NCBI RefSeq assembly: GCF_004152935.1 | Contig: NZ_SETE01000003.1 | Coordinates: 387,876 to 451,875 of the forward strand | From: Brumimicrobium glaciale | GTDB lineage: Bacteria > Bacteroidota > Bacteroidia > Flavobacteriales_D > Crocinitomicaceae | Reading direction: 5' to 3' | Length of the DNA: 64,000 bases | In this document: positions 9,868-59,579 of the stretch, in pieces | How the letters are laid out: each line of letters starts with the position of its first letter | Numbering within the stretch: the first letter of the stretch is position 1 | Notes under the pieces: generated by a model | The model's database searches: none | What the model saw: only the letters and a program-made list of their open reading frames with translations | Told to the model about the DNA's origin: nothing | Program-made: the position numbers and the translations under genes

Positions 9868-10020
9868 ATATTTAGATGTTAGATTTTAGATGTTTGTCAA
9901 AAGACAAAAAGTCTAACATACAAAATCTATTGTTTGGTTTAAAAATTTTTAGAAGCTAAAGCTAGATGCATTAAAGCGCATATTTTCAACTATTTATGAG
10001 ATCAATAAAGGGCGTATTGG
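9868..10020. repeat. Intergenic repeat family A, copy 1 (hairpin-rich element; other copies at 30206..30436 and 30437..30665)
   Basis: Shares the tagattttaga...gtctaac...aaatcta hairpin module and the tttagaagctaaagctag...caataaa core with the two tandem copies near 30.3 kb. Confidence 0.6.
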
Positions 10021-10076
10021 ACTTCGACGCTGTTCAGCCACTTCCATCCATACATTCAAGCTTTTAAAAAAAAACA

Positions 10077-10994: not shown

Positions 10995-11094
10995 ATTATA
11001 GTTTTAAGAAGCATAAGCAAGGGCGTTTTGCAAAACGCCCATACTTAATACTTCTTAAAAAGTACTCCGATGAAATGAGTTCAGTAACCTCTCA

Positions 11095-43917: not shown

Positions 43918-44928
43918 TTGTCCTCCATGAGAATTGATCCATTTGTAATTGCCATCACGTTAAGTATAGTCTTGGCGTATTTCTTTCCGCAACTCGGTGC
44001 TTCTGGAAGTCCTATTCCTCTAAACATCATTGCAAGTTTGGGGATTTCACTCATCTTCTTTTTCTATGGATTAAAACTCTCCACCGAAGCCATTAAAAGC
44101 AGTTTAAAGAACTGGAAACTTCACGTTGTTGTTCAAGCAAGCACATTCGTCCTATTCCCTTTGATTGTCGTTGTATTCTATCCGCTAGTTAAAGACACAA
44201 CTCACGAGATGCTTTGGCTTTCCTTACTTTTTATGGCTGCTTTGCCTTCTACCGTTTCTTCATCTGTTGTGATGGTTTCTTTGGCCAAAGGAAATATTCC
44301 TGCAGCTATTTTTAATGCCAGTATTTCGGGAATCATTGGAATAATAATTACTCCATTGTGGATGACGACTTTCATTCAACAAACCGATATCGCTTATGAT
44401 TTCTCCGCTATTTATTTGCAACTGGGAATGGAAATCTTGCTGCCACTTATCTTGGGATTATTGTTGCGAAAATACCTTGGAGCTTTCGCACAAAAGAACA
44501 AGCGTGGATTAAGTCTATTCGATAAATCTATAATTCTCCTTATCATTTACAAAAGTTTTGTTCATTCCTTTGAAGAAAAGGTTTTCAGCAGCGTGAGTAT
44601 CTTCGATTTATTAATCATGTTTGTTCTTGTGATTGCGCTTTTCTTCCTCGTATTTTTCATTACTGGATGGATAGGAAAACGTTTACACTTCAACCGTGAA
44701 GATAGAATTACCGCTCAATTTTGCGGAACTAAAAAATCGCTTGTCCATGGAACCGTTTTTTCTGAAGCTTTGTTTGGTCAAACGAGTATTATGGGATTGA
44801 TGCTATTGCCGTTAATGCTTTTCCATGCGGTACAGATTTTAATTATTAGTGTTTTGGCTACTAAAATGGGGAAAGAGGAAACGGAACGGGAGATTGCAGA
44901 ATCACGAAGTTCCCATCAAAATAACTAG
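43918..44928 (+). CDS. Bile acid:sodium symporter (BASS) family transporter
   Basis: 336 aa with ~10 TM helices. BASS-like core, with a conserved SSVV region (LPSTVSSSVVMVSLAKGN). Confidence 0.7.
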   Translation: MSSMRIDPFVIAITLSIVLAYFFPQLGASGSPIPLNIIASLGISLIFFFYGLKLSTEAIKSSLKNWKLHVVVQASTFVLFPLIVVVFYPLVKDTTHEMLWLSLLFMAALPSTVSSSVVMVSLAKGNIPAAIFNASISGIIGIIITPLWMTTFIQQTDIAYDFSAIYLQLGMEILLPLILGLLLRKYLGAFAQKNKRGLSLFDKSIILLIIYKSFVHSFEEKVFSSVSIFDLLIMFVLVIALFFLVFFITGWIGKRLHFNREDRITAQFCGTKKSLVHGTVFSEALFGQTSIMGLMLLPLMLFHAVQILIISVLATKMGKEETEREIAESRSSHQNN

Positions 44929-45137: not shown

Positions 45138-46082
45138 ATGAAAGAATCTATTTTTAAATCCACATTACAATCTTATGTATCAAAAACAGCTGTATTGGCA
45201 ATACTTTTGTTGATTGGAACAACACTAAACGCTCAAGTTGCATTCTATTTGAGACCGACGGTGAATATGAAGACAAACCAAAGTAGTTTTGGAACTGAAT
45301 ATCAAATGAACACTTATAATTCCGTCACCAACGAACATTTTACGTTTGTAAACAGACCAATGTTTTTGGATGGCCATATTGACTTAGGAATTAACGTAGG
45401 AATTCAGATAAAAGAAAAGCACTTTATAGAACTAGGTATATCCTCCGATCATTCTAGTATTGGAAGAAGTCTATTAACGCATTCAAATTTCAACGATTAT
45501 GAAACAGGAGAAAACTACACAAGCAATAGTTATTCACATACTACGGTAAGCCCTTTTTATGCAAGGATATCTGCTGATTACCACAATAATTTTTGGAACA
45601 ACAAGAAAGGAACTATAGGTTTTCGAAGTATTGCAGGAATAGGATTTTTATTTAGTGGAAATAGTAAACTTCAAATTAATGGAAGTGGACATGGAAACGG
45701 AAATTTAATCATGGGCAATGATGATTATGGAACTGGAATAACAGGTGATAATGATATTCAACAAATAGCCCCTGATGTTTTCATAACTGATTACGTAAGT
45801 AAAATTGAAACTTATGATGGTGTTACAGCATCCGTTAAGCTTGGACTAGGAATAGATTTCAGTACCAAAAAAGATTTTCATTTATTCTCATTTGATGTTT
45901 CCTATCTTCTAAGCACCAGACCTGTCCAGTTTCAAGAAACTAAAATCACAGTAATTGATAATGGTTTTGAAACAAATTATAGATATAATCAATCCAGTAG
46001 AGGTTCAGGATTATACTTTACATTATCGAGAAGATTCCAATTTTACCCTTGGAAACCTATAATTAAGAAACAGCAACTTTAG
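45138..46082 (+). CDS. Secreted protein of unknown function (tandem paralogue 1)
   Basis: 314 aa with a signal peptide (LNAQVAFYLRPT). Shares conserved blocks with 46306..47235: EHFTFxNxP, IQIKEKHFIELG, DYHNNFW, and FSxDxSYLLSxRPVQ. Confidence 0.6.
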   Translation: MKESIFKSTLQSYVSKTAVLAILLLIGTTLNAQVAFYLRPTVNMKTNQSSFGTEYQMNTYNSVTNEHFTFVNRPMFLDGHIDLGINVGIQIKEKHFIELGISSDHSSIGRSLLTHSNFNDYETGENYTSNSYSHTTVSPFYARISADYHNNFWNNKKGTIGFRSIAGIGFLFSGNSKLQINGSGHGNGNLIMGNDDYGTGITGDNDIQQIAPDVFITDYVSKIETYDGVTASVKLGLGIDFSTKKDFHLFSFDVSYLLSTRPVQFQETKITVIDNGFETNYRYNQSSRGSGLYFTLSRRFQFYPWKPIIKKQQL

Positions 46083-46305: not shown

Positions 46306-47235
46306 ATGAACATGAAAAAATCTGCATTTGAACCATTACTGTTTTTGTTGAAAACGGATAAATTAATCAACCTGAAAAAATCAACATTACTCTCCATATT
46401 TTTATTGTTTGGAATTACCTTAAACGCACAAGTTGCGTTTTATTTGAGACCGACAATTATTGCTAAAACCAACCAAGGTAAATTTGGAAGTTTTAGCGGT
46501 AAGGCGTCATTTAATACGATAACCAATGAGCATTTTACGTTTGCGAATCAACCTGTTTTATTCAGTGGATATCTCGATATAGGTTTTAATATTGGAATCC
46601 AAATAAAGGAAAAGCATTTCATTGAATTGGGTTTATCATCTGATTACTCTAGTATTGGAAACAATATTTTGATTAATTCAACTTATACTGATTTTCAAAC
46701 AGGTAAAGAATACATAACGAACAATTATTCTATGGGCACTACAAGTATATATTATCCGCGACTTTCTGTAGATTACCACAATAATTTCTGGAGTAATCCA
46801 AAAGAGACATTGCGAATTCGAAGCGTTGCAGGAGTAGGAGTTTTAATAGGTGGGAAAAGTATTGCTAGCAATGGAGGAGATTCTCCAGATCAACCAAATT
46901 CTCCCGAGGACTACCGTGAAATAGGACCAAATATTTTCATCACAAATGAATACTCTACAAGTACTAACAACGGAGGAAATACTGCTTACTTTAAACTAGG
47001 TTTTGGAATGGATTTCAACACGAAAAAAGACAGACATTTATTCTCTTTGGATGCATCTTATCTGCTTAGCGCAAGACCTGTACAATATGAAGAAACAAGA
47101 ATTCATGTGCTTGACAATGGAAATGAAGTAAACTATTTATTCGATCAATCAAGCAGAGGATCTGGTTTTTACTTCCAAATTTCTAGAAAGTTCCAGGTTT
47201 ATCCTTGGATTCCTATAAGAAAAGATAAAATATAA
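46306..47235 (+). CDS. Secreted protein of unknown function (tandem paralogue 2; 3' end altered by a ~105-bp insertion)
   Basis: 309 aa. The sequence homologous to paralogue 1's last codons (aaacggcaactttagaaataagg) reappears ~100 bp downstream of its stop. Confidence 0.6.
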   Translation: MNMKKSAFEPLLFLLKTDKLINLKKSTLLSIFLLFGITLNAQVAFYLRPTIIAKTNQGKFGSFSGKASFNTITNEHFTFANQPVLFSGYLDIGFNIGIQIKEKHFIELGLSSDYSSIGNNILINSTYTDFQTGKEYITNNYSMGTTSIYYPRLSVDYHNNFWSNPKETLRIRSVAGVGVLIGGKSIASNGGDSPDQPNSPEDYREIGPNIFITNEYSTSTNNGGNTAYFKLGFGMDFNTKKDRHLFSLDASYLLSARPVQYEETRIHVLDNGNEVNYLFDQSSRGSGFYFQISRKFQVYPWIPIRKDKI

Positions 47236-47302
47236 ATTGGAGCTTCGACTCCAGTATTATGTCATTCCCAACTGGGGCTTCGACTGCGCTCAGCCGCCAG
47301 TT

Positions 47303-47330
47303 GATAATTGATAATTGATAATTGATAACT
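47303..47330. repeat. (GATAATTG)x3-4 tandem repeat downstream of paralogue 2
   Basis: ttgataattgataattgataattgataac. Similar TTGATAATT units follow the stop codons of the genes ending at 6235 and 16337. Confidence 0.55.
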
Positions 47331-47564
47331 ATGAAACGGCAACTTTAGAAATAAGGTTGCTGTTTTTGTTTTTTGTAGGATAATATTGAATTGAAACACT
47401 TTTTCTAAAGAATTAATTCATCACAATAGAATTGATTTATCAAACAAGGACTATTAAATAGATGTGAAATTTCAACAAATTAAAAACACATCAACAAAAT
47501 CCCTATCGGGTGAACAATTTACAATTAAAATTTAACCATTAAAATATTAACTTTAGCCCTGCTA

Positions 47565-49460
47565 ATGAAAGAAACCCAGTTCATCAATCAGAATAAAAAC
47601 AAGTGGAACAAATTTGAAAAACACTTGGCTTCCTCTTCGACTGATCCCGAAGAGATTCGTGAACTGTACACCGAACTCAACAATGACTTGAGTTACGCGC
47701 AAACGTTTTATGAAAAAAGAACTGTTCGGGCTTATCTCAATTACTTGGCTCAAAGTGTTCACCGACAATTGTACAAACAGAAAAAAGAACCTTTTTCGGC
47801 AGTATGGAAAGCTTGGACAATCGAATTACCACTAGAAATTTATAGAGCACGTAAAAACTTACTTTTTGCATTGATTTTGTTTGTTATTTATGCAGCAATT
47901 GGAGCTTTTTCAACACATCAGGACATTGATTTTGCGAAAACTATTCTTGGAACTGGTTATGTGAATTTAACAGAAGAAAATATCGCAGCAGGAAATCCTT
48001 TGGGAATTTATGGCGATTCTTCGCAAGGAACAATGTTTGTTCAAATCACACTCAACAACATTAAAGTAGCCTTGTTGTGCTTTTTTGGTGGAATTTTATT
48101 CTCTCTCGGAACACATGTTATTTTGTTTAATAACGCCGTAATGGTTGGTGTTTTTCAATACTTTTTTAAGGTTAAAGGATTGTTATTGACTTCATTTTTA
48201 ACGATTTGGATTCACGGAGCTTTTGAAATTTCTGCAATTGTTATTGCGTCAGGAGCCGGATTTACGCTTGGACATGGATTATTATTCCCTGGAAGCTATA
48301 CCCGACTCCAAGCTTTACAAATGAGCGGTATGAGAGGAATCCGCATTATGCTTTCTTTGATTCCTATATTTGTTATTGCTGGATTTTTGGAAAGTTATGT
48401 CACAAGAAACTACCAAGTGCTACCTGATTGGTCAAAATGGATGATTGTAATATTTTCTTTTGCAATGATTCTATTTTATTATGTCGTTTATCCAATTTTA
48501 GTCGCTCGGAAATATCCAGAGAAAGTGCACGCAACACCACAAACAACTGCATTTGAAAAGGTAAAATTTGAACCTTTTAAAATCAGAAAAAATCTTGAAA
48601 TATTTAGAGAAAGCTTTCAATTGTACAGTATAAAATTCATTTTCTTTTGGAAAGGAATCATGCGTAGCGCGGTTCCTATGATTTCGGCACTCCTTATTTA
48701 TCAGTTTTTCATGCATTATTCTGATTTAACGAGTTCGTATTCTGTTGACTGGAAAGCACAACTCTCTATTTTATTCGGAAATTCATGGTCAGAAACTTAT
48801 AATGGAATCTCTGATACATTGATCTCCATTTTGTGGATTTTACCGATAGTTTTTATCGCCTTATCCCTGTTTTTTAGTTTTTATTCAAAAGAAGAAATAT
48901 TCAAAATGCCAAGTTTCGTTTCTTATGTTAGCAAACGATTTTTAAAAATGTTATTGGCTGTTTTACCCCTATATTTCTTAATGATTGTCCTCCCTTTTTA
49001 TATTTTAATTCCGATGATATTCTTATTTCCATTTTTCATATTAGGTCTACCAAGTGCCGGATTAGAAGAGAAATCGTCAATTAAGTCGGTATTTAAACTG
49101 GCTTCTCAAAAGTGGTCTGCGAGTTTGATTATTCTGATCGTTTTATCACTTACCACATTCTTCTTTGCACAACCCTTTGCTTTTGTTATCTCAGGAATGG
49201 GTGATTTACTGGATTGGTTTACCGATTTCTTACTTCCAATTTTTGCTGAAATCTCATCAGATCCTATCGTTTGGGTTAATGTCATTCGACAAATAGTTTA
49301 TGTATTATTTATGATTTTATTACTTCCTTTATTCTTCATTGCATTTACATTATTGTTCTATTCTGCGAAAGAAGAAAATGAAGCTTTAGGATTAAAGTCA
49401 GAATTTCAGAAATTTGGTAAACGCAGTAGAATTAAAGAAACAATAGTCGATTTTGAATAA
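47565..49460 (+). CDS. Polytopic membrane protein with SpoIIM-like (DUF95) N-terminal module plus C-terminal multi-TM extension
   Basis: 631 aa. A cytoplasmic N-terminus, then about six TM helices resembling stage-II-sporulation-protein-M/DUF95, then ~8 more TM helices. First gene of a five-gene overlapping operon. Confidence 0.6.
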   Translation: MKETQFINQNKNKWNKFEKHLASSSTDPEEIRELYTELNNDLSYAQTFYEKRTVRAYLNYLAQSVHRQLYKQKKEPFSAVWKAWTIELPLEIYRARKNLLFALILFVIYAAIGAFSTHQDIDFAKTILGTGYVNLTEENIAAGNPLGIYGDSSQGTMFVQITLNNIKVALLCFFGGILFSLGTHVILFNNAVMVGVFQYFFKVKGLLLTSFLTIWIHGAFEISAIVIASGAGFTLGHGLLFPGSYTRLQALQMSGMRGIRIMLSLIPIFVIAGFLESYVTRNYQVLPDWSKWMIVIFSFAMILFYYVVYPILVARKYPEKVHATPQTTAFEKVKFEPFKIRKNLEIFRESFQLYSIKFIFFWKGIMRSAVPMISALLIYQFFMHYSDLTSSYSVDWKAQLSILFGNSWSETYNGISDTLISILWILPIVFIALSLFFSFYSKEEIFKMPSFVSYVSKRFLKMLLAVLPLYFLMIVLPFYILIPMIFLFPFFILGLPSAGLEEKSSIKSVFKLASQKWSASLIILIVLSLTTFFFAQPFAFVISGMGDLLDWFTDFLLPIFAEISSDPIVWVNVIRQIVYVLFMILLLPLFFIAFTLLFYSAKEENEALGLKSEFQKFGKRSRIKETIVDFE

Positions 49461-50310
49461 ATTTCAACTCAAATATAATCTGATTTGGCTCTTGTTTGCC
49501 GTTTTTCCTTTCGTGCTTTTTGGACAGGAGAATGATGCTTTTGAAAAGCGTTGGGAGGAAATCAATAAAGGAATTGAATACAAAAAATCAGCACGTCCAA
49601 AAGGCCCTGAAAAAGAATACATCGCTCCTCAAAGTTTAAATGAAGAGCGCAAGAACGAAGAAAATTACGATGCTCGACCTAACAGTGAAGATATTATTTA
49701 TTCGAGAGAAAAGCGATATGAAAATGGCGAAAATCAAGGAATAAAAAAGCACATTAAAGATGGAGAAAATCAAAATATAGATGATTTATCAACTCCAAAA
49801 AGCGAAGCACCAAAATCGGAAAATTCTTATAATAATCGTGATTTCGGTGATGGTACCGTTTTTAAATATATTATCATCATTGGTATCGTCTTGGTCGTTT
49901 TTCTAATCTATTATTTCTTCTTCAAAAATGCGGTAAAGTCCGACAAGGAAATCGTGAATATCGATTATGAAAAAGTAAATGACATCAATCCAGAAACCAT
50001 TAATAAAAGTCAGCTGGAAACTGATTTAGAAAAAGCTATTTCAGAAGAAAATTACCGTGCTGCAATTCGTATTTATTACATTCTTTTATTAAAAGCCTTA
50101 ATCAATAGAAACTTGATAAAATGGGCGAACAGAAAGACAAACACACATTATTTGGCAGAAATGACCACGCAAAAGGAGTTTGAAAACTTCAATAAATCGG
50201 TTAATATTTACGAATGGACTTGGTATGGGAAAAACAATCCAAGTAAGGACGTTTTTGAGCGCTTCGCAGCATTTTATGATGACTTTTTAAAACGATTAAA
50301 GGATGAATAA
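49453..50310 (+). CDS. DUF4129-like membrane protein (N-terminal hydrophobic segment, acidic/low-complexity linker, TM, cytoplasmic DUF4129-like C-terminal domain)
   Basis: 285 aa. The TTG start overlaps the upstream stop. TM KYIIIIGIVLVVFLIYYFFF; C-terminal W/Y-rich block (NIYEWTWYG...FERFAAFYDDF). Confidence 0.55.
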   Translation: MNKFQLKYNLIWLLFAVFPFVLFGQENDAFEKRWEEINKGIEYKKSARPKGPEKEYIAPQSLNEERKNEENYDARPNSEDIIYSREKRYENGENQGIKKHIKDGENQNIDDLSTPKSEAPKSENSYNNRDFGDGTVFKYIIIIGIVLVVFLIYYFFFKNAVKSDKEIVNIDYEKVNDINPETINKSQLETDLEKAISEENYRAAIRIYYILLLKALINRNLIKWANRKTNTHYLAEMTTQKEFENFNKSVNIYEWTWYGKNNPSKDVFERFAAFYDDFLKRLKDE

Positions 50311-51967
50311 TAAAAGAATCCTTTACCTCATCATTGCGGTTGTGCTTGTTGGCGCATTGTTCGTTCTGTTCCTAAATTCAGGTTCGGAGGAACCCACAGC
50401 AGCAAAACGTAAAAAAGTTGATTACTCTTCTCACGATTGGAAGGTTGACTTATCACTCGATAATAAAAATCCTTATGGTTTATATGCTTTCCGAGAGTTA
50501 ACAATTGCTGATGGTCGATTTACTGAATTCAATGCTGTTTCTGACTATAATTTACTCGATTCTATTGTCCAATTAGATTCATCGATGTTGATGTTCATTG
50601 GAATGGATTTAATGCTGACAGATGAAGAAATCGACTTGGTTTTAGAAAGTATTGATTACGGAAATGACTTCTTTATATCAGCTGAGAAAATACCTTCTTA
50701 TTTGTTAGATCAATTAATGAGTGAAAAAGCGTTAACCTATTATCCGAATAAAAAAGCGCCTCATAAAATCAATAAAAAGGTTTACGATATGTATTATTTC
50801 TACGAGAATGATACACTGACTGAAATTTGGGATCTATTCAATCCTAAGAAATTGGACACGCTGACCAATGTATTGTCTACAATCTACGGAAGACCTAATT
50901 ATATTGAGATTGAATATGGTTTAGGGAAGGTTTTTATCCATTTGAATCCTTTGGTTTTTACAAATGTTCAGCTCTTAAAAAGTGATGGTAAATCGTATTT
51001 TAAAGAAGTTTTATTGACGCTTGAACAACCAAAAATTCAATGGCTTACTTTTGCTAATTTCGAAGCTAAACCTTACAGCGATAAGTCAACAAGCTTTGAG
51101 AATAATAAGAGTTTATTGAGTGAATTATTCAAACATCCAGCTTTCCGTTGGGGATTTATTCTAGCCGTTTTTGGTGTACTTTTATTCTTGCTTTTTAGAA
51201 GTAAAAGAAGACAGCCAATTATTCCTGCAGTTGAAGACAATAAAAATACTGGCTTTAGTTATGTAGATACTTTGGCGGGAATTTATTACAACAAAGAACA
51301 TGGAGATAAAATCTTAAAAATCATGCGCCGTAATTTTTACAGCGCTGTTTACGACCATTTCTATATTGATTTGGCCAAACGAGAGGATTCAAAACCAATA
51401 ATAGCACTTTCAAAAAAGTCAAATATTCCTACATCTGAAATAGAGCAATTAATAAAGTACCTCGAAGTTACCACTAAAGTGAGCGATATTTTCTTGAGTA
51501 ATACTTACAAAATTCAGCGTTCCTTCTATTTAAAATCTGGAATCTGGAACGAAGAAATCAGACAAAAACAAATCAACAGTTCGGTTTCAATTTACCGTCA
51601 AAAAGAGCGGGCTTTGGGAACAATTGGTTTAGGTATTTTCATTATTGTACTTGGATTCATTTTCTTATCCGTTTCTTTAGGAGTTGGAGTTTTGTTCTGG
51701 CCATTGGGAATTGTAGGAATTGTGATTGGAACAAGAATGCTCAATACTCCAGCGATAATATTAAATCCTGGTCAAATTGAGTTAAATCCATTATTTGGTA
51801 AAAAAGTTATCATTTTGCATGAAAATATTAAGTTTATTGAAGAAAAAGGTCTAAATTCTCTCATTTACTTTAAAAATGGAGGAAAGGCTACTTTAAATAA
51901 TTCACAATTAGATCAAAAGAAAATTAAAGCATTAGATCATTTAAAACAACGGTTTAAACAAACTTAG
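50303..51967 (+). CDS. DUF4350-like membrane protein fused to a 2-TM + bacterial-PH-like C-terminal module
   Basis: 554 aa. N-terminal TM, a ~260-aa extracytoplasmic domain, a TM (WGFILAVFGVLLFLLF), a cytoplasmic region, two adjacent TM helices, and a ~80-aa C-terminal domain. The ATG overlaps the upstream gene by 8 nt. Confidence 0.55.
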   Translation: MNNKRILYLIIAVVLVGALFVLFLNSGSEEPTAAKRKKVDYSSHDWKVDLSLDNKNPYGLYAFRELTIADGRFTEFNAVSDYNLLDSIVQLDSSMLMFIGMDLMLTDEEIDLVLESIDYGNDFFISAEKIPSYLLDQLMSEKALTYYPNKKAPHKINKKVYDMYYFYENDTLTEIWDLFNPKKLDTLTNVLSTIYGRPNYIEIEYGLGKVFIHLNPLVFTNVQLLKSDGKSYFKEVLLTLEQPKIQWLTFANFEAKPYSDKSTSFENNKSLLSELFKHPAFRWGFILAVFGVLLFLLFRSKRRQPIIPAVEDNKNTGFSYVDTLAGIYYNKEHGDKILKIMRRNFYSAVYDHFYIDLAKREDSKPIIALSKKSNIPTSEIEQLIKYLEVTTKVSDIFLSNTYKIQRSFYLKSGIWNEEIRQKQINSSVSIYRQKERALGTIGLGIFIIVLGFIFLSVSLGVGVLFWPLGIVGIVIGTRMLNTPAIILNPGQIELNPLFGKKVIILHENIKFIEEKGLNSLIYFKNGGKATLNNSQLDQKKIKALDHLKQRFKQT

Positions 51968-51969
51968 CA

Positions 51970-53052
51970 ATGGAAGAAAACGAAAAATATTTACCGAAAA
52001 ACGAAGAGAATGCTTCAAGCAATAATGAAGAAAACCCTCTTTCATCAGGGGAGAATGTGGAAGTAAATCCACTTGAAAAAATGCCTTTTGAAGAAGAAAA
52101 TCCAGAGATGATTTGGCTCTCACAAAAGGTCAATGAAATCAGAGCAAAAATGGGTGAATTCATTATTGGTCAACACGTAATGGTAGATTTATTAATGACA
52201 GGAATTTTCTCTGCCGGACATATTCTGTTGGAAGGAGTTCCTGGAGTCGCAAAAACATTATCGGCAAAAGTATTGTCTAAATCATTGGATATTGATTTCT
52301 CTAGAATTCAATTTACTCCTGATTTAATGCCTTCAGATGTCATCGGAACTTCGGTTTTCAACATGAAGAATTCAGAGTTTATTTTCAAGAAAGGACCTAT
52401 ATTTTCTAACATAGTTTTGATTGATGAAATCAACCGTGCTCCAGCAAAAACGCAAGCTGCTTTGTTTGAAGTAATGGAAGAACGTCAAATTACTTATGAT
52501 GGAGATTTATACAAAATGGAGTTTCCATTCATTGTAATAGCGACACAAAATCCAATTGAACAAGAAGGAACTTATGCTTTACCAGAAGCTCAGTTGGACA
52601 GATTTCTATTCAAAATCACAATGGGTTATCCAGATTTAGAAGACGAAATAAAAATTCTTTACCGCTATAGAAATAATATTAAACCACCAGAATTAGATGA
52701 CGTAAAAGCGGTCATTTCCACTGCTGATATTCATAAAATTCAGGAGTTGATAAAGAAGGTTGTCATTACAGATGAGTTGATTCAATACATCGCTTCAATT
52801 GTTGATAAAACGAGAAATCACGGGAAGATTTATTTAGGAGCTTCTCCACGTGCATCGCTTTCAATTCTTAAAAGTGCAAAAGCAGCCGCAGGAATTCGAG
52901 GAAGAGCATTTGTAACGCCAGACGATATTCAATTTGTTTCTCCTTATGTGTTGAATCACCGTTTAATTTTAACGCCAGATGCTGAAATGGAAGGAACTTC
53001 AACGAATGAAGTTGTCGCTTCAATTATTCAAGAAATCGAAGTACCAAGATAA
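51970..53052 (+). CDS. MoxR-family AAA+ ATPase
   Basis: 360 aa. Walker A GVPGVAKT, Walker B VLIDEINRA, a sensor/arginine-finger region, and a MoxR-type C-terminal helical domain. An acidic ~40-aa N-terminal extension. Confidence 0.9.
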   Translation: MEENEKYLPKNEENASSNNEENPLSSGENVEVNPLEKMPFEEENPEMIWLSQKVNEIRAKMGEFIIGQHVMVDLLMTGIFSAGHILLEGVPGVAKTLSAKVLSKSLDIDFSRIQFTPDLMPSDVIGTSVFNMKNSEFIFKKGPIFSNIVLIDEINRAPAKTQAALFEVMEERQITYDGDLYKMEFPFIVIATQNPIEQEGTYALPEAQLDRFLFKITMGYPDLEDEIKILYRYRNNIKPPELDDVKAVISTADIHKIQELIKKVVITDELIQYIASIVDKTRNHGKIYLGASPRASLSILKSAKAAAGIRGRAFVTPDDIQFVSPYVLNHRLILTPDAEMEGTSTNEVVASIIQEIEVPR

Positions 53053-53055
53053 TAA

Positions 53056-54381
53056 ATGTTGAAATCGCTTTACATATCGCGCTTCTTTTTCATTGCTTTT
53101 GGAATGAGCATTGTTCTTATAGTAACAGGATTTTATTTGCCTGTTTTGCTCTATTTTGGACAATTTTCACTTATTGTGCTGCTAATTCTAACAATTTTGG
53201 ACGGTTTTCTGCTGTTTAATCATAAAAACCCAATTGCTGCAAAAAGGAACATAGAAGCACGTTTAAATTTAGGTGATGAAACATTAATTAATATTTCGAT
53301 TAAAAATAAAGGAAATCAACCTTACAGAATAACGGTTTTTGATGAGCCGCCATTTGAAATGCAAGCCAGAGATTTGACATTCAACGGATATATCAAAGCA
53401 GGAAGCGAAGAGCAATTCAGCTATACATTTAAACCCACAGAACGTGGAGAATATGAATGGAAAAACTTGCATGTTTTCATTCGTTCTTTTATCAATCTAT
53501 TGGAACGAAGAATCATTATTGAAGCTCCAGAAAAGGTCTTGGTTTATCCTTCTATTTTGCAAATGAAGAATTTTGAATTCCTTATTTTTAACCAACAAAC
53601 ACAGCAAAGAGGAATCAAAAAAATCCGAAGATTGGGTCACAACAATGAATTCGAACAAATTAAAAATTACATTCAAGGAGACGATATCCGAACTGTCAAT
53701 TGGAAAGCTACCTCTCGTCGTTCAGAATTAATGGTGAATCAATTCCAAGCACAAAGATCTCAATCTGTCTATGCGGTTATTGATAAATCACGCTCAATGG
53801 AACACCGATTTGAAGGATTAACACTATTGGATCATGCGATTAACAGCACACTTATATTTTCAAATATAGCATTAAAAAAAGGTGATAAAATTGGCTTGGT
53901 TACTTTCTCTCATAAGTTAGGAACTCAAATTGCGCCAAATCTAGGAAAGAGACAATTGCAAAGAATCTTAGATGCACTTTTTGCTCAAAAAACAGAGTTT
54001 AAAGAGTCAAATTACTCGCTTTTGTACCAATCTTTGCGAAAAACCATCCCTTTTCGTTCACTTTTGATGTTGTACACCAACTTTGAAACAGAACTCGCAA
54101 TGCACCGCGCTTTACCCATGCTGAAAAGCATCAATAAGAGACATGTTTTGGTAGTGATTTTCTTTAAGAACACAGACTTAAATGAAGAACTCACGAAAAG
54201 TCCGACGACTGCTAGAGAATTGTATGTTTCAACGCTTGCAGAGGATGTAATTAACACCAAAAAGCGCATCGCAAAAGAATTGAATCGACATGGAATTCAA
54301 ACTGTTTTAACAGCGCCAAATGAGTTGAATGTCGATACTTTAAATAAGTATTTGGAATTGAAATCTAGAGGGTTGATTTGA
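53056..54381 (+). CDS. DUF58 protein (vWA-like fold, N-terminal 2 TM), MoxR partner
   Basis: 441 aa. Two N-terminal TM helices, then a DUF58 core with the conserved GDDIRTVNWKATSR motif. Confidence 0.85.
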   Translation: MLKSLYISRFFFIAFGMSIVLIVTGFYLPVLLYFGQFSLIVLLILTILDGFLLFNHKNPIAAKRNIEARLNLGDETLINISIKNKGNQPYRITVFDEPPFEMQARDLTFNGYIKAGSEEQFSYTFKPTERGEYEWKNLHVFIRSFINLLERRIIIEAPEKVLVYPSILQMKNFEFLIFNQQTQQRGIKKIRRLGHNNEFEQIKNYIQGDDIRTVNWKATSRRSELMVNQFQAQRSQSVYAVIDKSRSMEHRFEGLTLLDHAINSTLIFSNIALKKGDKIGLVTFSHKLGTQIAPNLGKRQLQRILDALFAQKTEFKESNYSLLYQSLRKTIPFRSLLMLYTNFETELAMHRALPMLKSINKRHVLVVIFFKNTDLNEELTKSPTTARELYVSTLAEDVINTKKRIAKELNRHGIQTVLTAPNELNVDTLNKYLELKSRGLI

Positions 54382-54410
54382 TGTGTCTGTTTTCGTGCGG
54401 ACTTGCGGTA

Positions 54411-54468
54411 CGGACGATTTGCAAATCATGCACACATGGACTAGTACGGTCGATTTGCAAATCGTCCC
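54411..54468. repeat. Family C palindromic units (ggacgatttgcaaatc / ggtcgatttgcaaatcgtccc), plus a 21-nt segment identical to an internal GT9 coding segment
   Basis: A GATTTGCAAATC palindromic core occurs twice. aaatcatgcacacatggacta at 54423..54443 is identical to 54652..54672 inside the GT9 ORF. Confidence 0.55.
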
Positions 54469-55694
54469 TACAAAGTCCTTCTCACCAACCCCAAAGTCTT
54501 CTGCCCTTGGTCACTATAATAAATCGTCTTGTTTTTATTCTCTAAATCGGGAACAAACTCTTTATTCAAATGCAATTGAGCTTTTGAAAACACCTCTTCA
54601 ACAGTAATCAATTTCATACAAACATTATCGCCGTTACAAGGAGAAATATTGAAATCATGCACACATGGACTACAGAAAACTTTTTTGTAAATCACCGTTG
54701 TATATTCGTTTCCTCCATATTGATCAGGCGAACACGGTCCAAATAGACAAACTGTCGGTGTTTTGCAAGCGAACGCAATGTGCATTGGTCCTGTATCATT
54801 CGTAATGACCAATGTCGCCTTGTGAATCAAAGCTATCAACTCATCAATTGTAGTTTTACCCGCTACATTTTTAACGCTAGGATGATTGATTCCTTCAACT
54901 GTTTTTACGCTGTATGGACGCTCATCTTTACTTCCAACAACAAGTATTTCCATTAAAGGATATTCTTCAACCAATTTTAAAATTAATTGATTAAACTTAT
55001 CTGAACCCCATCTTCTTTCTAACCTTAAATCTGAAGCATTAGGATTAATGATAATGTATTCACTTTTTGGAATTCCGTCATAATCATGGGTGTTTTCAAA
55101 TAAAGGATACAAAACGTTTTTCGTGTGATTTACGCCAAAAAGACGTGAAATCTGTAAATAAACCTCCGAAATCGGCACATTATTGTTGAAAAACATCATG
55201 TGCGTATAAATCCCCATATTAAACGAACTTGATCTCAAGTAGAATCCAACTCTATTTTTCGAGAAAGTAAACAACGTAAATAATGTGCTGAAATTGGAAT
55301 AGATTTCTAAGTCAATATAAACATCTGGTCTTTTTCGCATTAATTTAAAAAGCGAAGAAAACATCGTAGAAATAAGCTTAAAAACGTTTTTGTCATCTAA
55401 GCAAATTATGGAGTCAATGTGCTCTATTTTTTCTAAAACAGTCCGATTGGCTTTCGTAGAAACAAATGTAATTTCAGCATCTGGAAATTGAGTTCGTAAA
55501 GCTTCAATCATTGGAGTCGCTTGAATAATGCTGCCCATTCCTTTGAATTTACAAACCACAATATGCTTGAAATCATTGTCTAAACTGTGATCAATTCGTA
55601 AAATTTGCCCAACGATTCGCACCAAAAAGTTCATCAAAAACGCAATGGGTTTGATGAGATAATTGTCTATTGCTAATTGATGTTTAGTTTTCAA
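54468..55694 (-). CDS. Glycosyltransferase family 9 (heptosyltransferase-like)
   Basis: 408 aa with the GT9 two-domain GT-B pattern. C-terminal segment GPMHIAFACKTPTVCLFGP is typical of ADP-heptose:LPS heptosyltransferases. Confidence 0.8.
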   Translation of the reverse strand: MKTKHQLAIDNYLIKPIAFLMNFLVRIVGQILRIDHSLDNDFKHIVVCKFKGMGSIIQATPMIEALRTQFPDAEITFVSTKANRTVLEKIEHIDSIICLDDKNVFKLISTMFSSLFKLMRKRPDVYIDLEIYSNFSTLFTLFTFSKNRVGFYLRSSSFNMGIYTHMMFFNNNVPISEVYLQISRLFGVNHTKNVLYPLFENTHDYDGIPKSEYIIINPNASDLRLERRWGSDKFNQLILKLVEEYPLMEILVVGSKDERPYSVKTVEGINHPSVKNVAGKTTIDELIALIHKATLVITNDTGPMHIAFACKTPTVCLFGPCSPDQYGGNEYTTVIYKKVFCSPCVHDFNISPCNGDNVCMKLITVEEVFSKAQLHLNKEFVPDLENKNKTIYYSDQGQKTLGLVRRTL

Positions 55695-58527
55695 ATCGTG
55701 TGTCTTTATATAGAGTAACGCTTTTTAAAGCACTTGAGTTACCATTTTCTAATTCAAAGAAAGTTGCATTTCCGTTGTGCCAATGGTAACTGTTTGAAAT
55801 TCGAATCATGTATTTATTTCCCAACTCTTTATTGATTTCAAACTTAAACAAGTCTAGTTTATTTCCCAAGGAATCTTGTAAAATTAAGCTTTTCGTTGTC
55901 TTATCGAAATCATCATTAAATTCAAATAATAAATACGCATGTGAATTATTATTCGCTAAATCTCTAATTGAAATTGGATCTGCTAATTGTGTTTTCCATT
56001 CTTGAATTGTTTCTAAATCTTCAAAGCTATTTCGCTGATAAAAGTCATGAATATAATGTGCTGTTTTCTTATAATTATAAACTTCTGGAGATTTAGAAAC
56101 AGAATCTTTTAATGCCAAATAATCGTTTTTAATTTTAAAATCTTTCGCTATCCAAATGCGTTTTTCACTAATGATTGAATAAGGTTCGTAATTTTTATAA
56201 ATGTATTCAGCGACCAGATAATAGCGCATACTGTTAGGTATTCCATCCGTTTCATCAAACCATGATTTTGGATAAGAAGAAAACACCACCACAGGAACAT
56301 CTTGAGGATTTACAGCATTCAATAAGTGCAATTGTGAAAAATCATCTACACTATTTTGAAGATTCTGACAAAAATATCCAGGCACTTCTTTCCCTGAATA
56401 ATAGTACAACATTGGTGTATTTGAAAAATCTAAGAAGGTTTCTTTCCCCGTTAAGTTATCCTCTAAAAAGTTTTTAAAATCTCTAAGCTCACTAGCATAA
56501 AAGCCATGGTTTGGTTTCGTTCTGCGTAATTCTGTTTTTGCAGCAATATCAACGTTTAATGTGATGAAAGCATTTTTCTTAATTGCCTTATCAAAAGTTC
56601 CAAATTCTGGTTGATAAGGGAAAAATCTGAATATTAAAAACAAAGAGAAACAACCAATATAAAAAAGTGTTAATCGATTTTTTACTACATAATTTCGAAG
56701 CAAAAACACAATCAATAATGTCAGCGCAAAATAAAATGTAGTAATCACTGCGCCATCATTATTTTCTGCATAACCATGCCGAACGATTCCTCTTTGTGCA
56801 TTGGCTAAAGAAATCAAAAAGAAAAACAATGAAGTATGTAAAATCAATACATCACTTTTACTGATGTTCAATAATTCCACTTTTTTCCATAAACGAAAAA
56901 CAATATAAAGTATAGAAATCACGGATATCAGCGGCAAGAAGAAATAAGAAATATAAAACTGATGTGGATATTTGTAGGCAATTTCAGAATATCCATGGGC
57001 TTGATTTCCGCTCACATAATGCAACGCAACTCTAAAGTTTTCTAAAATAGTACCTCCACCTCTCAATAAAATAGCGACAATAAGAAGTCCTAAAATTATG
57101 GCAATCGCAATGAAAAACCCCTTAAAAAGATGCTTCCACTGAATTGAAATAGTTTTGGTAATAGTTAAGAAAAGGAAATAGAAAAAACTTGAAATTAAGG
57201 CAGCATAACCGGCGTCAATTTTCCAAACAATCAAAAGAATTACAGAAGCAAATAAGAAGAAATAAAGTTTCGTTTTTGATTCTTTTAAAATCTGTTGAAT
57301 AATAAAAAACGGAAGTATACAATAGATTAAATCATTGGAAAAAACCTCTGTTAAAAATGGAAAGGCCAGAACAAATAAGAGAGAAAACGCTGGTCTTTTA
57401 AACAACTTGTTCAATACAAAATAAACGACTAAAAGGAACATCAATCGATTAAAGAAGAAGTAAATCTGAAAATCTAATTCATTATTGTACCCAAAAATAA
57501 GTGAGTAAATAATGCCGTACCATTGTTCTGCAAACATGTGAGAACTCATGAAATCAACAAATGGAATTTCACCAAACCTAAAGATTCGCATTATGGCATT
57601 CGCTGGATTCCCTAATTCAAAAAGCTCTGTGTTTTGTTGAATAATTGGAAAGTAATAAATCAATAAACAATATGCGATGATGATGGAAGGCGATAAATAT
57701 CTTCTAAAAATGAATGTTGTGTTTTTTAATTTTTTCTTTTTAAAGTAAATGAAACCATAAAACACAATTAGAGAAAGAGTGAAAAGTAATAAGTACAGTT
57801 TTCGATACCCTAAAAAATCATATCCTTTTTGATATTGGAGAATTACCAATTCTATAGCTAAAAATGAAAGTAAGGAGAGAAATATCAGCGGAATAAACAG
57901 ATGATTTATTTGTCTAAAAGTGAGTTTTGAAAATTGATTAATTATGAGAAAGACTATCGTCAAAAAGAATACGGAAAAGACATAAACTAATAAAAAATGT
58001 TCTGTTCCTGTTAAATACAAAACGGCAAAATAGACTAAAAATCCATAAGATAAAATGGAATTACTCAGTACCTCGGCTTTGAATATTTTAAAGGATTTTA
58101 TACCGCTATTTGCAAATCCATAAATGATTATTTTGTAGAACAACAGAAAGGAAATCAAATAAATAAGCATTTCTGTTTCTACTCCGATTACTTGAATTAA
58201 GGTAATTGAAATCCCAATACTACTCAATAACAACAATACAGATTCTTGTTGTTTTTGAATTTTTATGCGCTGAAAAACAAAATGAAATATTGATAAATTA
58301 ATCAACAAGAGAGCAATCAATTTAAAGATCAAACCGTAAAATAAATCTACCCGACTTTGAATAGAAATCCCATCTGCCGTGGCTTGACTAATGATGAGCT
58401 TGTGCATTTCAACCAACTCAAAACTACTATTTTGATAAAGCAGTTGCAACAAAAAAATACTTACAAAAAGCGCTGTAAAAAACGTAAAGCTTTTAATTTG
58501 TAGTAGATATGAAAAAGGGTTTCTCAT
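55684..58527 (-). CDS. Large polytopic membrane protein (>=20 TM) with ~300-aa C-terminal soluble domain; possible GT-C-type glycosyl/polymerase-like protein
   Basis: 947 aa. The stop overlaps the GT9 start by 11 nt. No motif I can assign, so the function is inferred from context only. Confidence 0.5.
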   Translation of the reverse strand: MRNPFSYLLQIKSFTFFTALFVSIFLLQLLYQNSSFELVEMHKLIISQATADGISIQSRVDLFYGLIFKLIALLLINLSIFHFVFQRIKIQKQQESVLLLLSSIGISITLIQVIGVETEMLIYLISFLLFYKIIIYGFANSGIKSFKIFKAEVLSNSILSYGFLVYFAVLYLTGTEHFLLVYVFSVFFLTIVFLIINQFSKLTFRQINHLFIPLIFLSLLSFLAIELVILQYQKGYDFLGYRKLYLLLFTLSLIVFYGFIYFKKKKLKNTTFIFRRYLSPSIIIAYCLLIYYFPIIQQNTELFELGNPANAIMRIFRFGEIPFVDFMSSHMFAEQWYGIIYSLIFGYNNELDFQIYFFFNRLMFLLVVYFVLNKLFKRPAFSLLFVLAFPFLTEVFSNDLIYCILPFFIIQQILKESKTKLYFFLFASVILLIVWKIDAGYAALISSFFYFLFLTITKTISIQWKHLFKGFFIAIAIILGLLIVAILLRGGGTILENFRVALHYVSGNQAHGYSEIAYKYPHQFYISYFFLPLISVISILYIVFRLWKKVELLNISKSDVLILHTSLFFFLISLANAQRGIVRHGYAENNDGAVITTFYFALTLLIVFLLRNYVVKNRLTLFYIGCFSLFLIFRFFPYQPEFGTFDKAIKKNAFITLNVDIAAKTELRRTKPNHGFYASELRDFKNFLEDNLTGKETFLDFSNTPMLYYYSGKEVPGYFCQNLQNSVDDFSQLHLLNAVNPQDVPVVVFSSYPKSWFDETDGIPNSMRYYLVAEYIYKNYEPYSIISEKRIWIAKDFKIKNDYLALKDSVSKSPEVYNYKKTAHYIHDFYQRNSFEDLETIQEWKTQLADPISIRDLANNNSHAYLLFEFNDDFDKTTKSLILQDSLGNKLDLFKFEINKELGNKYMIRISNSYHWHNGNATFFELENGNSSALKSVTLYKDTRFEN

Positions 58528-58784
58528 TTAATTAATTTGTTGAACTAAATTATGTAATTCTCCTCAAAATTAAGTTTTCGTGTGAAAAGATGGTTAATTC
58601 TTTCAAAAAATGAACTAATAATAAAAAATAGAAAACGGATTTCGGTTAATTTACAAATTAAAATCCGTTACTATCCGCGTTGCTAACGGTAATTGAGCCT
58701 GTGGAAGGCCCGCATAATCCGCGTTCCATCATCCCAGAAAACACCTGTTTCTACATTTATTGTTTACCTTTATACTTTTAAATT

Positions 58785-59579
58785 ATGCAAAAGCTTAAAC
58801 TCACAACAGATCAAAATGTACCCATCGAAGTAGAGTTGGCAGGAATCGAACAACGACTTCTGGCTGTACTTCTTGATTTGGTTATCCTGATGAGCTACTT
58901 TGTTTTGATGTTGGCGCTTATCAATATTATTTTTACAACGAGTTATAGCAATTTCAGTGAGCAAGATTTTAGTTTTTGGTTTATTCTTTTTATACTCCTT
59001 GTTTACTTACCTTTTTCTCTTTACACCCCCTTAATGGAGTATTTCACAAAGGGTCAAACCATCGGAAAAATGGCTTTAGGAATTCGTGTAACCAAGGTAA
59101 ATGGAGAGAATGCAAAATTTAAAGACTACTTTACACGTTGGCTTTTTCGCCCTTATGAAGTATACATTTTAATGTTTGCACTTGGCGGAGTATTAGCATT
59201 TTTAGCCTCATTTTTTTTTGATACTTTGATCAGTGCTATTTCAAGTAAAAACCAAAGAATTGGTGATTTTATGGCAAATACTGTTGTGGTAAGGAAAAAA
59301 CCAAAGAAAGTTTACTCTATAAATGATATCTTAGCCATCCGAAATAACGAAAACTATACCCCTACTTATACAGGAGTTTCGATGTACACAGACGAAGATA
59401 TGATGTTGGTTAAAAATGTCATTTCTCGTGTTGAAACATATAAAAACAAAGAAACAAAAGCATTAGCAATTGAACTCGCAGATCAAATTGCAGAAGAATT
59501 AAAGTTGGAAGAAAAACCAGAGAAAAAATTGACTTTTTTAAAAACAGTATTGAGCGATTATATCGTTTTAACAAGATAA
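58785..59579 (+). CDS. RDD-family membrane protein
   Basis: 264 aa. N-terminal RDD region (RLLAVLLDLVI...), three TM helices, and a soluble C-terminal domain. Confidence 0.7.
   Translation: MQKLKLTTDQNVPIEVELAGIEQRLLAVLLDLVILMSYFVLMLALINIIFTTSYSNFSEQDFSFWFILFILLVYLPFSLYTPLMEYFTKGQTIGKMALGIRVTKVNGENAKFKDYFTRWLFRPYEVYILMFALGGVLAFLASFFFDTLISAISSKNQRIGDFMANTVVVRKKPKKVYSINDILAIRNNENYTPTYTGVSMYTDEDMMLVKNVISRVETYKNKETKALAIELADQIAEELKLEEKPEKKLTFLKTVLSDYIVLTR

Follow-up and report, generated by a model that had tools for sequence, protein, structure and literature searches.

A conserved membrane-associated MoxR gene set in Brumimicrobium glaciale, compared with its described relatives

Several MoxR ATPases of the AAA+ class are known to act through vWA adaptors, namely, in the pairs RavA-ViaA, CbbQ-CbbO, and NorQ-NorD (PMC11834572, PMC12067865). 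The clients of these pairs are defined enzymes (Rubisco, NO reductase, and respiratory complexes). The subject here is a MoxR locus in Brumimicrobium glaciale, found in a 64,000-nucleotide (nt) stretch of contig NZ_SETE01000003.1 (the window, within which all positions are counted). Five genes in a row encode a SpoIIM-like protein, a DUF4129-like protein, a DUF4350-like protein, a MoxR ATPase, and a DUF58 protein, and a sixth, encoding an RDD-family membrane protein, is displaced downstream. The window shares with the characterized pairs an AAA+ MoxR protein and a vWA-fold adaptor, and they serve as a mechanistic template. Unlike them, it encodes no enzyme client, its adaptor is membrane anchored, and the MIDAS (metal ion-dependent adhesion site) of that adaptor appears partly degenerate. 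The six genes very probably encode one conserved multicomponent membrane MoxR system.

The MoxR-DUF58 core occurs in other described settings as well. In the Bat operons of Bacteroides, Riemerella, Francisella, and Borrelia, a MoxR gene of the MRP type, with an AAA_3 domain, is followed directly by a DUF58 gene and the system is membrane associated, as in the window. The partners differ, however. Those in the window are SpoIIM-like, DUF4129, DUF4350, and RDD proteins, and moxR is not the first gene. A sequence-only reading of this DNA, made without database searches, had already set the operon apart from the Bat arrangement, and indeed no BatA/BatB proteins (vWA domains with transmembrane [TM] segments) or TPR proteins are encoded in the five genes or their flanks. 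A second setting is the MoxR-DUF58-transglutaminase triad, known from the bifidobacterial PFNA cluster and the Pseudomonas TgpA operon, in which a gene for a polytopic membrane protein comes after the MoxR and DUF58 core (PMC6803598). In contrast, the window has no transglutaminase core, and its DUF4129 is a stand-alone bitopic protein. DUF4129 is defined in Pfam as the C-terminal domain of MoxR/DUF58-linked transglutaminase proteins, an origin that would make it a recurrent MoxR/DUF58-linked cytoplasmic module.

DUF4350 also has a described association with MoxR. Makarova et al. (2015) reported archaeal operons combining DUF4350, MoxR, and vWA genes, for which a secretion or membrane-remodeling complex was proposed, as well as bacterial SpoIIM homologs beside vWA and COG0714 genes (PMC5898192). 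In the archaeal arCOG01314 system, a COG0714 ATPase and a vWA protein are encoded together with a DUF4350 protein that is anchored in the membrane and has a GldG-like ectodomain; genes 3, 4, and 5 of the window present this combination as well. The differences are 2-fold. (i) The archaeal operons carry Ig-like/S-layer-like proteins (arCOG02884 and others), none of which are seen among the domains of the window operon. (ii) The archaeal vWA protein is predicted to be secreted, whereas the vWA domain of the window's DUF58 protein is probably cytoplasmic.

A fuller match is found in the mycobacterial moxR2 cluster, Rv3689-Rv3695, which by its annotation in published transcriptome tables has five families in common with the window: Rv3691 is a DUF4350 protein, Rv3692 MoxR, Rv3693 DUF58, Rv3694c SpoIIM-like, and Rv3695 RDD, with a further membrane protein besides (PMC8191103). 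Its genes are coregulated; in Mycobacterium chelonae, the orthologs of Rv3689 and Rv3691-Rv3695 (BB28_RS01875-01900 and RS24340) fall together by 6 to 8 log2 units in a double lysogen (PMC8191103). The gene order, known here from annotation alone, differs from that of the window, with the divergent SpoIIM/RDD pair placed downstream of the other genes. Both members of that pair, Rv3694c and Rv3695, copurified with the divisome protein Rv0954 (PMC8093794). Is the arrangement in the window new, then? It is not, as NCBI annotates it gene by gene and Makarova et al. described related operons (PMC5898192). A search of the openly searchable literature, which does not cover subscription-only articles, found no functional study or phenotype for this gene set.

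The coordinates of the locus are collected in Table 1. A mechanical list of open reading frames (ORFs) reproduced the five codirectional ORFs exactly as first read, and the RDD gene, placed by that reading 4.4 kb downstream, starts 4404 nt past the DUF58 stop. Pfam matches to SpoIIM (DUF95), AAA_3, DUF58, and RDD are all above threshold, and a hydropathy scan of the operon proteins agrees with the membrane topologies proposed earlier. Every non-ATPase member of the six-gene set is membrane anchored. The junctions are as tight as had been claimed: genes 1 and 2 (GATTTTGAATAA, with a TTG start inside the stop region) and genes 2 and 3 (GGATGAATAA) each overlap by 8 nt, genes 3 and 4 are 2 nt apart (TAGCAATG), and 3 nt separate gene 4 from gene 5 (TAATAAATG), so that moxR is directly adjoined by the gene for its vWA-fold partner. 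Support for the TTG start of gene 2 comes from its ortholog at locus L004, which has ATG at the aligned position and the identical 8-nt overlap.

Table 1. Features of the locus, by position in the window
Feature	Position	Strand	Remarks
Intergenic region upstream of operon	47236-47564	+	329 nt; presumed operon promoter
Four tandem TTGATAA heptamers	~47300-47330	+	From sequence
Terminator-like hairpin of upstream gene	47333-47366	+	15-bp stem
Gene 1, SpoIIM-like	47565-49460	+	631 amino acids (aa), polytopic membrane protein; mechanical ORF list
Gene 2, DUF4129-like	49453-50310	+	285 aa, TTG start, bitopic; mechanical ORF list
Gene 3, DUF4350-like	50303-51967	+	554 aa, ectodomain plus PH-like tail; mechanical ORF list
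Gene 4, MoxR AAA+ ATPase	51970-53052	+	360 aa, soluble; mechanical ORF list
Gene 5, DUF58	53056-54381	+	441 aa, N-terminal TM hairpin; mechanical ORF list
Two copies of 29-nt palindromic element GTACGGnCGATTTGCAAATC...	54408-54471	.	Repeat and inverted-repeat search; between convergent DUF58 and GT9
GT9 glycosyltransferase	54468-55694	-	Glyco_transf_9 1.3e-24; insert, outside system
947-aa polytopic membrane protein	55684-58527	-	No family match; insert, outside system
Gene 6, RDD-family membrane protein, displaced	58785-59579	+	Pfam RDD 5.6e-20

How widely is the gene set conserved? One genome per species was scanned with an alignment of the SpoIIM-like protein as the query; the DUF4350 alignment had no conserved stretch. 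At least 578 stretches of species-representative genomes encode the SpoIIM-like protein. The best 80 of these were analyzed, all from Bacteroidota (Crocinitomicaceae, Saprospiraceae/Lewinellaceae, Chitinophagales, and Cytophagales), with ORFs mapped by jackhmmer and gene order counted on the 56 loci with 5.5 kb or more of downstream sequence. The order SpoIIM-DUF4129-DUF4350-MoxR-DUF58 is complete in 50 of the 56. An RDD gene lies just upstream of SpoIIM, in divergent orientation, in 12 of the 70 loci with enough upstream sequence, and this placement is seen in L001 to L007, in Saprospiraceae/Chitinophagales loci, and in Prevotella. Existing annotation gives a divergent RDD gene followed by SpoIIM (with DUF8413), DUF4129, DUF4350, MoxR, and DUF58 in Phaeodactylibacter, “bacterium SCSIO 12741,” and a Crocinitomicaceae metagenome-assembled genome, and the Bacteroidota layout is also complete in Prevotella sp. 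oral taxon 299.

Beyond Bacteroidota, a tblastn search of plasmids and chromids with the SpoIIM half of gene 1 matched 59 records. By NCBI annotation, plasmid pCadTS8_2 of the gammaproteobacterium Catenovulum adriaticum has the order RDD-SpoIIM-hypothetical-DUF4350-MoxR-DUF58, the hypothetical protein being DUF4129-like by jackhmmer. Plasmids of two alphaproteobacteria, pRphaBra5c of Rhizobium phaseoli and p_II of Paracoccus aminovorans, have DUF805-DUF4129-DUF4350-MoxR-DUF58-SpoIIM-RDD; here the hypothetical proteins were matched to DUF4129 at an E value of 3.6e-4 and to DUF4350 at 7e-6. These proteobacterial clusters have all six families in common with the window and are all codirectional with overlapping junctions, but the order is permuted, the SpoIIM proteins are about 316 to 358 aa long, and the Catenovulum DUF4129 protein, at 515 aa, has extra N-terminal TM segments. 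One or two DUF805 genes precede the Rhizobium and Paracoccus operons (L091 3560-4643; L092 4251-4691) and may be additional members peculiar to those lineages. In Nocardia farcinica, a DUF4129-containing ORF is followed by MoxR and DUF58 and then by RDD on the minus strand and SpoIIM on the plus strand, a layout that matches that of the mycobacterial cluster; DUF4350 was not detected in the Nocardia cluster.

Thus, the same families travel together in Bacteroidota, Alphaproteobacteria, and Gammaproteobacteria while their order and orientation change, and the gene set is conserved far more than chance would allow. The sequence-only reading had proposed that SpoIIM, DUF4129, and DUF4350 are coconserved with MoxR and DUF58, and neighborhood analysis finds these families recurring across phyla rather than in this genome only. 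Two submodules are separable, DUF4129-DUF4350-MoxR-DUF58 and SpoIIM plus RDD, because RDD-SpoIIM pairs occur without the MoxR module nearby in Bernardetia (L095 8076-10854) and at L071 (8948-11854). At L070 (Neolewinella, 10001-11845), there is likewise no DUF4129-DUF4350-MoxR-DUF58 module near the RDD-SpoIIM pair or a lone SpoIIM gene, and in Neolewinella antarctica the gene next after SpoIIM encodes citrate synthase, with no MoxR module there.

RDD completes the conserved set as its sixth member. The window protein matches PF06271 over residues 19 to 165 (5.6e-20, 72.5 bits, cut-off 24.1) and has a further C-terminal domain of about 100 aa. The association with RDD that had been suggested from the window holds up in L088, where RDD adjoins the operon, in Catenovulum, Rhizobium, Paracoccus, and Nocardia, where it is next to SpoIIM, and in other genomes, where it is divergent upstream of SpoIIM. 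In L088, a Brumimicrobium sp. whose gene 3 product is 68% identical, RDD is codirectional and begins 90 nt after DUF58 (gap 14080-14168), and downstream of it come the TP_methylase, ADH, and GT1 genes that the window has there too. The sequence immediately upstream of RDD is conserved.

What separates RDD from DUF58 in the window is the GT9 gene and the gene for the 947-aa membrane protein, which overlap by 11 nt. This pair is a lineage-specific insertion, as had been suspected, because it is absent in L088 and present in L087, the closest relative (gene 3 identity of 71%), where the two genes likewise run counter to the operon in the gap between DUF58 and RDD; it was found in the window and L087 only. 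No flanking direct repeats typical of a mobile element surround it. In Brumimicrobium salinarum, a different cassette of YfhO-like, methyltransferase, and GT2 genes occupies the same spot (L089 14091-17739). The gap between DUF58 and RDD (54382-58784 in the window) is therefore a variable spot in Brumimicrobium, and both known inserts are glycosylation related. Pfam, NCBIfam, and PADLOC gave no match for the 947-aa protein, which may be an uncharacterized membrane glycosyltransferase or polymerase; homology to the B. salinarum YfhO-like protein was considered, but BLASTP found no similarity.

Turning to the proteins themselves, the ATPase is the most readily classified. Gene 4 matches AAA_3 at 1.4e-62 (209.8 bits, cut-off 27) and AAA_lid_2 at 3.3e-22 (78.4 bits, cut-off 22.7), and both of its Walker motifs, A (GVPGVAKT) and B (LIDEINR), fall within highly conserved blocks of a 67-sequence alignment. 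Its N-terminal extension of about 45 aa is acidic and nonconserved, and hydropathy gives no TM segment. The nearest solved structure is MoxR 2R44 (3.4e-87). Among the proteins searched by sequence, MoxR alone has a solved relative, none having been found in the PDB for the SpoIIM-like, DUF58, or RDD proteins; for the products of genes 2 and 3, comparison with the PDB was by fold search only. NCBIfam added nothing specific for the operon proteins.

The putative adaptor, gene 5, matches DUF58 (PF01882) at 3.9e-22 (79 bits, cut-off 23.4) and VWA_2 at 1.7e-6 (29 bits, cut-off 27). An N-terminal TM hairpin (about residues 4 to 57) is followed by a β-rich region and then the vWA-like domain. The MIDAS-like residues are D243-K-S245-R-S247, T313, and N342, the last in place of the final Asp. 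Among 64 homologs, D243 is kept in all 64, S245 in 58, and T313 in 52; position 342 is N, not D, in 60, and position 247 is variable. Judged from these residues, the MIDAS of DUF58 is partly degenerate family-wide. In B. salinarum, DUF58 is split into overlapping ORFs (L089 12732-13406, 224 aa, and 13298-14056, 252 aa), which may reflect a frameshift or a pseudogene.

The DUF4350 label for gene 3 needed more than a profile search. PF14258 is matched below threshold (E = 0.046, 14.4 bits versus a cut-off of 30.4), even though the alignment covers profile positions 3 to 176 of 181 (residues 54 to 232). The label is rescued because orthologs at 44 to 50% identity carry PF14258; so do distant ones at 21 to 29%. 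The protein is also 100% identical to B. glaciale ERX46_09055, whose UniRef name is “DUF4350 domain-containing protein.” The Pfam threshold was missed, but the family membership given by the first reading stands, and the GldG/GIFT-like ectodomain expected of the family lies between two TM segments. Hydropathy gives an N-terminal TM segment, a central one, and a late TM hairpin. An AlphaFold2 model built on a 39-sequence alignment (mean predicted local distance difference test score [pLDDT], 74) comprises an α/β ectodomain (about residues 60 to 250, within a DUF4350 domain of about 55 to 250), a TM segment (279 to 299), a cytoplasmic helical domain (317 to 424), the TM hairpin (434 to 481), and a C-terminal PH-like β-domain (485 to 553) of six β-strands and a C-terminal helix.

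In this model, the ectodomain has a GIFT/GldG/class-I-glutamine-amidotransferase-like α/β fold and is predicted to be extracytoplasmic. Its fold neighbors include proteins of glycan-handling complexes. No Cys is conserved in it, so a glutamine amidotransferase active site is lacking. Residues 206 to 221 carry a motif, G-x-G-x4-H-x-N-P-x2-F-T-N, that is invariant within Bacteroidota and whose P....N core is kept in the proteobacterial orthologs; it may be a site for a ligand or partner.

The PH-like tail is another matter. It had been described as bPH-like, and by fold the description is apt, as the TM hairpin leads into a PH-like β-sandwich that ends in a helix. The bPH_2 profile, however, went unmatched, and no bPH family in Pfam matched either the whole of gene 3 or ten orthologous tails at E ≤ 5. 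The one recurrent weak match to the tail was DUF6560 (best values of 1.6e-4 to 4.4e-5), below its own cut-off. The TM hairpin and PH-like tail are lineage restricted. They occur in 47 DUF4350 ORFs of the locus scan and are missing in 9 (Saprospiraceae, Chitinophagales, and others), as well as from distant homologs of gene 3. A search of 1.84 billion representative proteins returned only 31 relatives, almost all 545 to 572 aa long with the tail at the C terminus, and a profile search with 14 diverse DUF4350 sequences brought in no additional proteins.

Gene 2 also fell short of the Pfam threshold, with DUF4129 (PF13559) matched at an E value of 0.12 (12.9 bits versus a cut-off of 24.8) over profile positions 2 to 68 of 69 (residues 209 to 275). 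Here, too, the label survives through homology. Syntenic orthologs annotated with PF13559 (those of L001 and L002; SCSIO 12741 and Phaeodactylibacter) align with gene 2 over the invariant residues K228-T229-N230, Y233, E236, and W257-Y258-G259, and these KTN..Y..E and WYG motifs rescue it. A profile search with gene 2 matched PF13559 proteins at 1e-26 to 1e-101, a reach limited to close relatives. Hydropathy gives an N-terminal hydrophobic segment and one TM segment (about 135 to 160); the linker between (about 30 to 135) is extracytoplasmic and of low complexity, and the AlphaFold2 model shows disorder over 64 to 134. Residues 185 to 284 are modeled as a five-helix bundle with pLDDT above 90, which probably lies in the cytoplasm. 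Does this bundle resemble anything known? Foldseek found no structural neighbor at E ≤ 0.001, and the matches to HEPN-like bundles were insignificant. An identification of DUF4129 as a HEPN domain was not adopted, since the best of these (E = 0.025) fits a generic helical bundle.

The SpoIIM-like protein, gene 1, matches PF01944 over the full profile (positions 1 to 163 of 163; residues 102 to 281; 1.6e-36, 126.1 bits). It is polytopic by hydropathy, with a cytoplasmic helical domain at the N terminus (about residues 1 to 85), and its orthologs are annotated with both PF01944 and DUF8413 (PF28475, in a newer Pfam). Because the tblastn alignments to plasmids and chromids begin at residue 1, the N-terminal cytoplasmic and SpoIIM domains are conserved across phyla. 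The C-terminal TM module (about 331 to 631), in contrast, is specific to Bacteroidota. This half has no Pfam match and is absent from the annotated 316- to 358-aa SpoIIM genes of Catenovulum, Rhizobium, and Paracoccus. That the module equals the N-terminal TM half of the DUF4129 protein of Catenovulum (515 aa) was considered and rejected as unsupported, since BLASTP gave only E = 0.012 and a hidden Markov model of 79 Bacteroidota sequences gave no match. In Prevotella sp. oral taxon 299, two overlapping ORFs rather than a single 630-aa one encode the SpoIIM domain and the C-terminal module (L094 9001-9972 and 9941-10951; the module was matched by hmmsearch at 2.6e-12), the result of either gene fission or a frameshift. 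For L037, L058, and L079, assembly errors may account for comparable splits.

The namesake, SpoIIM of the Bacillus subtilis DMP engulfment complex, shares with gene 1 the polytopic PF01944 TM domain. It differs in that gene 1 has the extra N-terminal DUF8413 domain, conserved across phyla in the MoxR-linked subfamily, and the additional C-terminal TM module. Nor were SpoIID or SpoIIP families found by Pfam scans of ORFs of 200 aa or more between 43.9 and 63.5 kb. Bacteroidota, moreover, are not known to form spores.

What might such a system do? On balance, we lean toward an ancient and modular MoxR complex of six components in the inner membrane, probably engaged in envelope work. The soluble MoxR AAA+ hexamer would be held at the membrane by the DUF58 protein, through its TM hairpin and its cytoplasmic, MIDAS-like vWA domain. 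As in the characterized MoxR/vWA pairs, the adaptor would pick the client and MoxR would provide ATP-driven remodeling. Because the adaptor is membrane anchored and all other conserved partners are membrane proteins, the clients would be the cytoplasmic parts of bitopic proteins, that is, the DUF4129 bundle and the juxtamembrane and helical domains of DUF4350. Client movement could then pass through the membrane to the extracytoplasmic part of DUF4350, whose GIFT-like fold mediates oligomerization elsewhere and is found in glycan-handling complexes, with the polytopic SpoIIM-like/RDD pair as a possible membrane platform. The output would be assembly or gating of a complex directed at the envelope, for surface glycan, the cell wall, or export, and not the insertion of metal into a soluble enzyme. 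The TM hairpin and PH-like tail that DUF4350 has gained in Crocinitomicaceae might add a membrane- or lipid-sensing input. The specific relay, from MoxR/DUF58 through DUF4129 and DUF4350 to the ectodomain, is drawn by analogy and is tentative, with the chances against it. An envelope role is hinted at, weakly, by the glycan-complex fold neighbors, the copurification of Rv3694c and Rv3695 with Rv0954, and the proposal of Makarova et al.

Several points weigh against this account. (i) Complex formation among the six proteins is something we infer from gene linkage. (ii) The six genes are not obligatorily linked, since the MoxR module fails to follow the SpoIIM-like gene in about 12 of the 80 scanned loci (6 of the 56, and 7 shorter ones), and no RDD gene lies within 10 kb in 58 of 70 Bacteroidota loci, mostly Fluviicola-like Crocinitomicaceae. 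(iii) Classical metal-mediated capture of clients is uncertain because the second Ser of the MIDAS is variable and Asn replaces the last Asp. (iv) The link to the envelope and to glycans draws on fold neighbors and on nearby glycosyltransferase genes, which are common and perhaps coincidental.

Of the rival explanations, the one that survives best, though it is unlikely, is a dedicated secretion or surface structure assembly system, in which the GldG-like DUF4350 ectodomains would form an extracytoplasmic ring and MoxR would power assembly or export. The GIFT/GldG-like fold fits it, as does the corresponding proposal for the archaeal operons (PMC5898192). A weak ABC_transp_aux match in the Catenovulum DUF4350 ortholog points the same way, and most components are membrane proteins. 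However, no cargo genes, outer membrane component, S-layer/Ig-like partners, or channel-forming family was recognized. This explanation also overlaps the inner membrane complex favored above, the sole difference being that export is named as the output.

Alternatively, the locus could be a functional variant of the Bat system, with the MoxR and DUF58 core serving in oxidative or general stress and other membrane partners replacing BatA-E. That an AAA_3-type MoxR is directly followed by DUF58 is just as in Bat operons (PMC11834572), and a stretch of gene 3 (TM2 and the basic juxtamembrane residues after it) gives a weak, subthreshold match to the BatA N terminus (E = 0.024). A MoxR/DUF58 operon of Mycobacterium smegmatis, perhaps of another type, belongs to the SigF stress regulon (PMC4694148). 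We think such a variant improbable: besides the missing vWA-TM and TPR proteins, the different partner set is itself conserved across phyla, and moxR, first in Bat operons, is fourth here. The mechanism of Bat is itself unknown, so little would be explained.

It is less probable again that the genes are neighbors by descent only, with MoxR and DUF58 working on unlinked clients and the membrane proteins independent of them. The SpoIIM-like and RDD genes do occur without the MoxR module in some genomes, and RDD is absent from most Crocinitomicaceae loci. Yet across four bacterial classes or phyla the same families come together again with their order changed, start and stop codons overlap in each lineage, and the M. 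chelonae genes respond as one. Finally, a conflict or defense system of the MoxR-vWA type (ternary systems or IetA/IteA-like ATPases) is very improbable. The matches of gene 4 to bpMoxR (1.8e-9) and, weakly, to IetA and DolB in PADLOC and IteA in NCBIfam fall well short of the AAA_3 match and are what any AAA+ fold would give, and PADLOC matched none of the five remaining proteins. The locus encodes no effector domain such as a protease, nuclease, or TIR domain, and its synteny is conserved and vertically inherited across the family and beyond, unlike that of defense islands.

The surroundings of the operon can be described briefly. GC-rich, REP-like (repetitive extragenic palindromic) repeats, GCTTCGACT..., are found in the upstream intergenic region (47240-47366). 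A promoter-like match, TTTACA-16-TAAAAT, lies at 47518-47545; the total of promoter matches was not above that in shuffled sequence (42 versus 50±7.7 in a sigma-70 scan, by a tool without Bacteroidota promoters). The pair of 29-nt palindromes past the DUF58 stop may serve as a bidirectional terminator or may be REP-like. Farther upstream, an SBF-like transporter gene (43918-44928) is syntenic with the operon in L087 to L089. The ORFs at 45138-46082 and 46306-47235 have no Pfam match, and the 314-aa product of the former appears to have a counterpart in L087.

MoxR ATPases are very widespread AAA+ proteins whose clients are mostly unknown, and the partner set described here is also that of the Mycobacterium tuberculosis moxR2 cluster. 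The locus is useful for seeking MoxR clients, though in itself neither surprising nor decisive. It offers handles for genetics and interaction mapping in its modularity (the four-gene module plus SpoIIM/RDD), its membrane-anchored partners, and the predicted GIFT-like ectodomain of DUF4350. The window's own additions are lineage specific: the PH-like tail of DUF4350, the fused C-terminal TM module of SpoIIM, and the insertion hot spot beside RDD. A bolder possibility, speculative and probably too bold, is that these genes belong to an uncharacterized class of AAA+-powered transmembrane machine, in which MoxR seated on DUF58 would pull on DUF4129 and DUF4350 and so drive assembly of the GIFT-like domains on a channel-like SpoIIM/RDD platform. 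If true, this would mean inside-out energy coupling for envelope glycan or cell wall assembly, or for export, conserved from Bacteroidota to M. tuberculosis.

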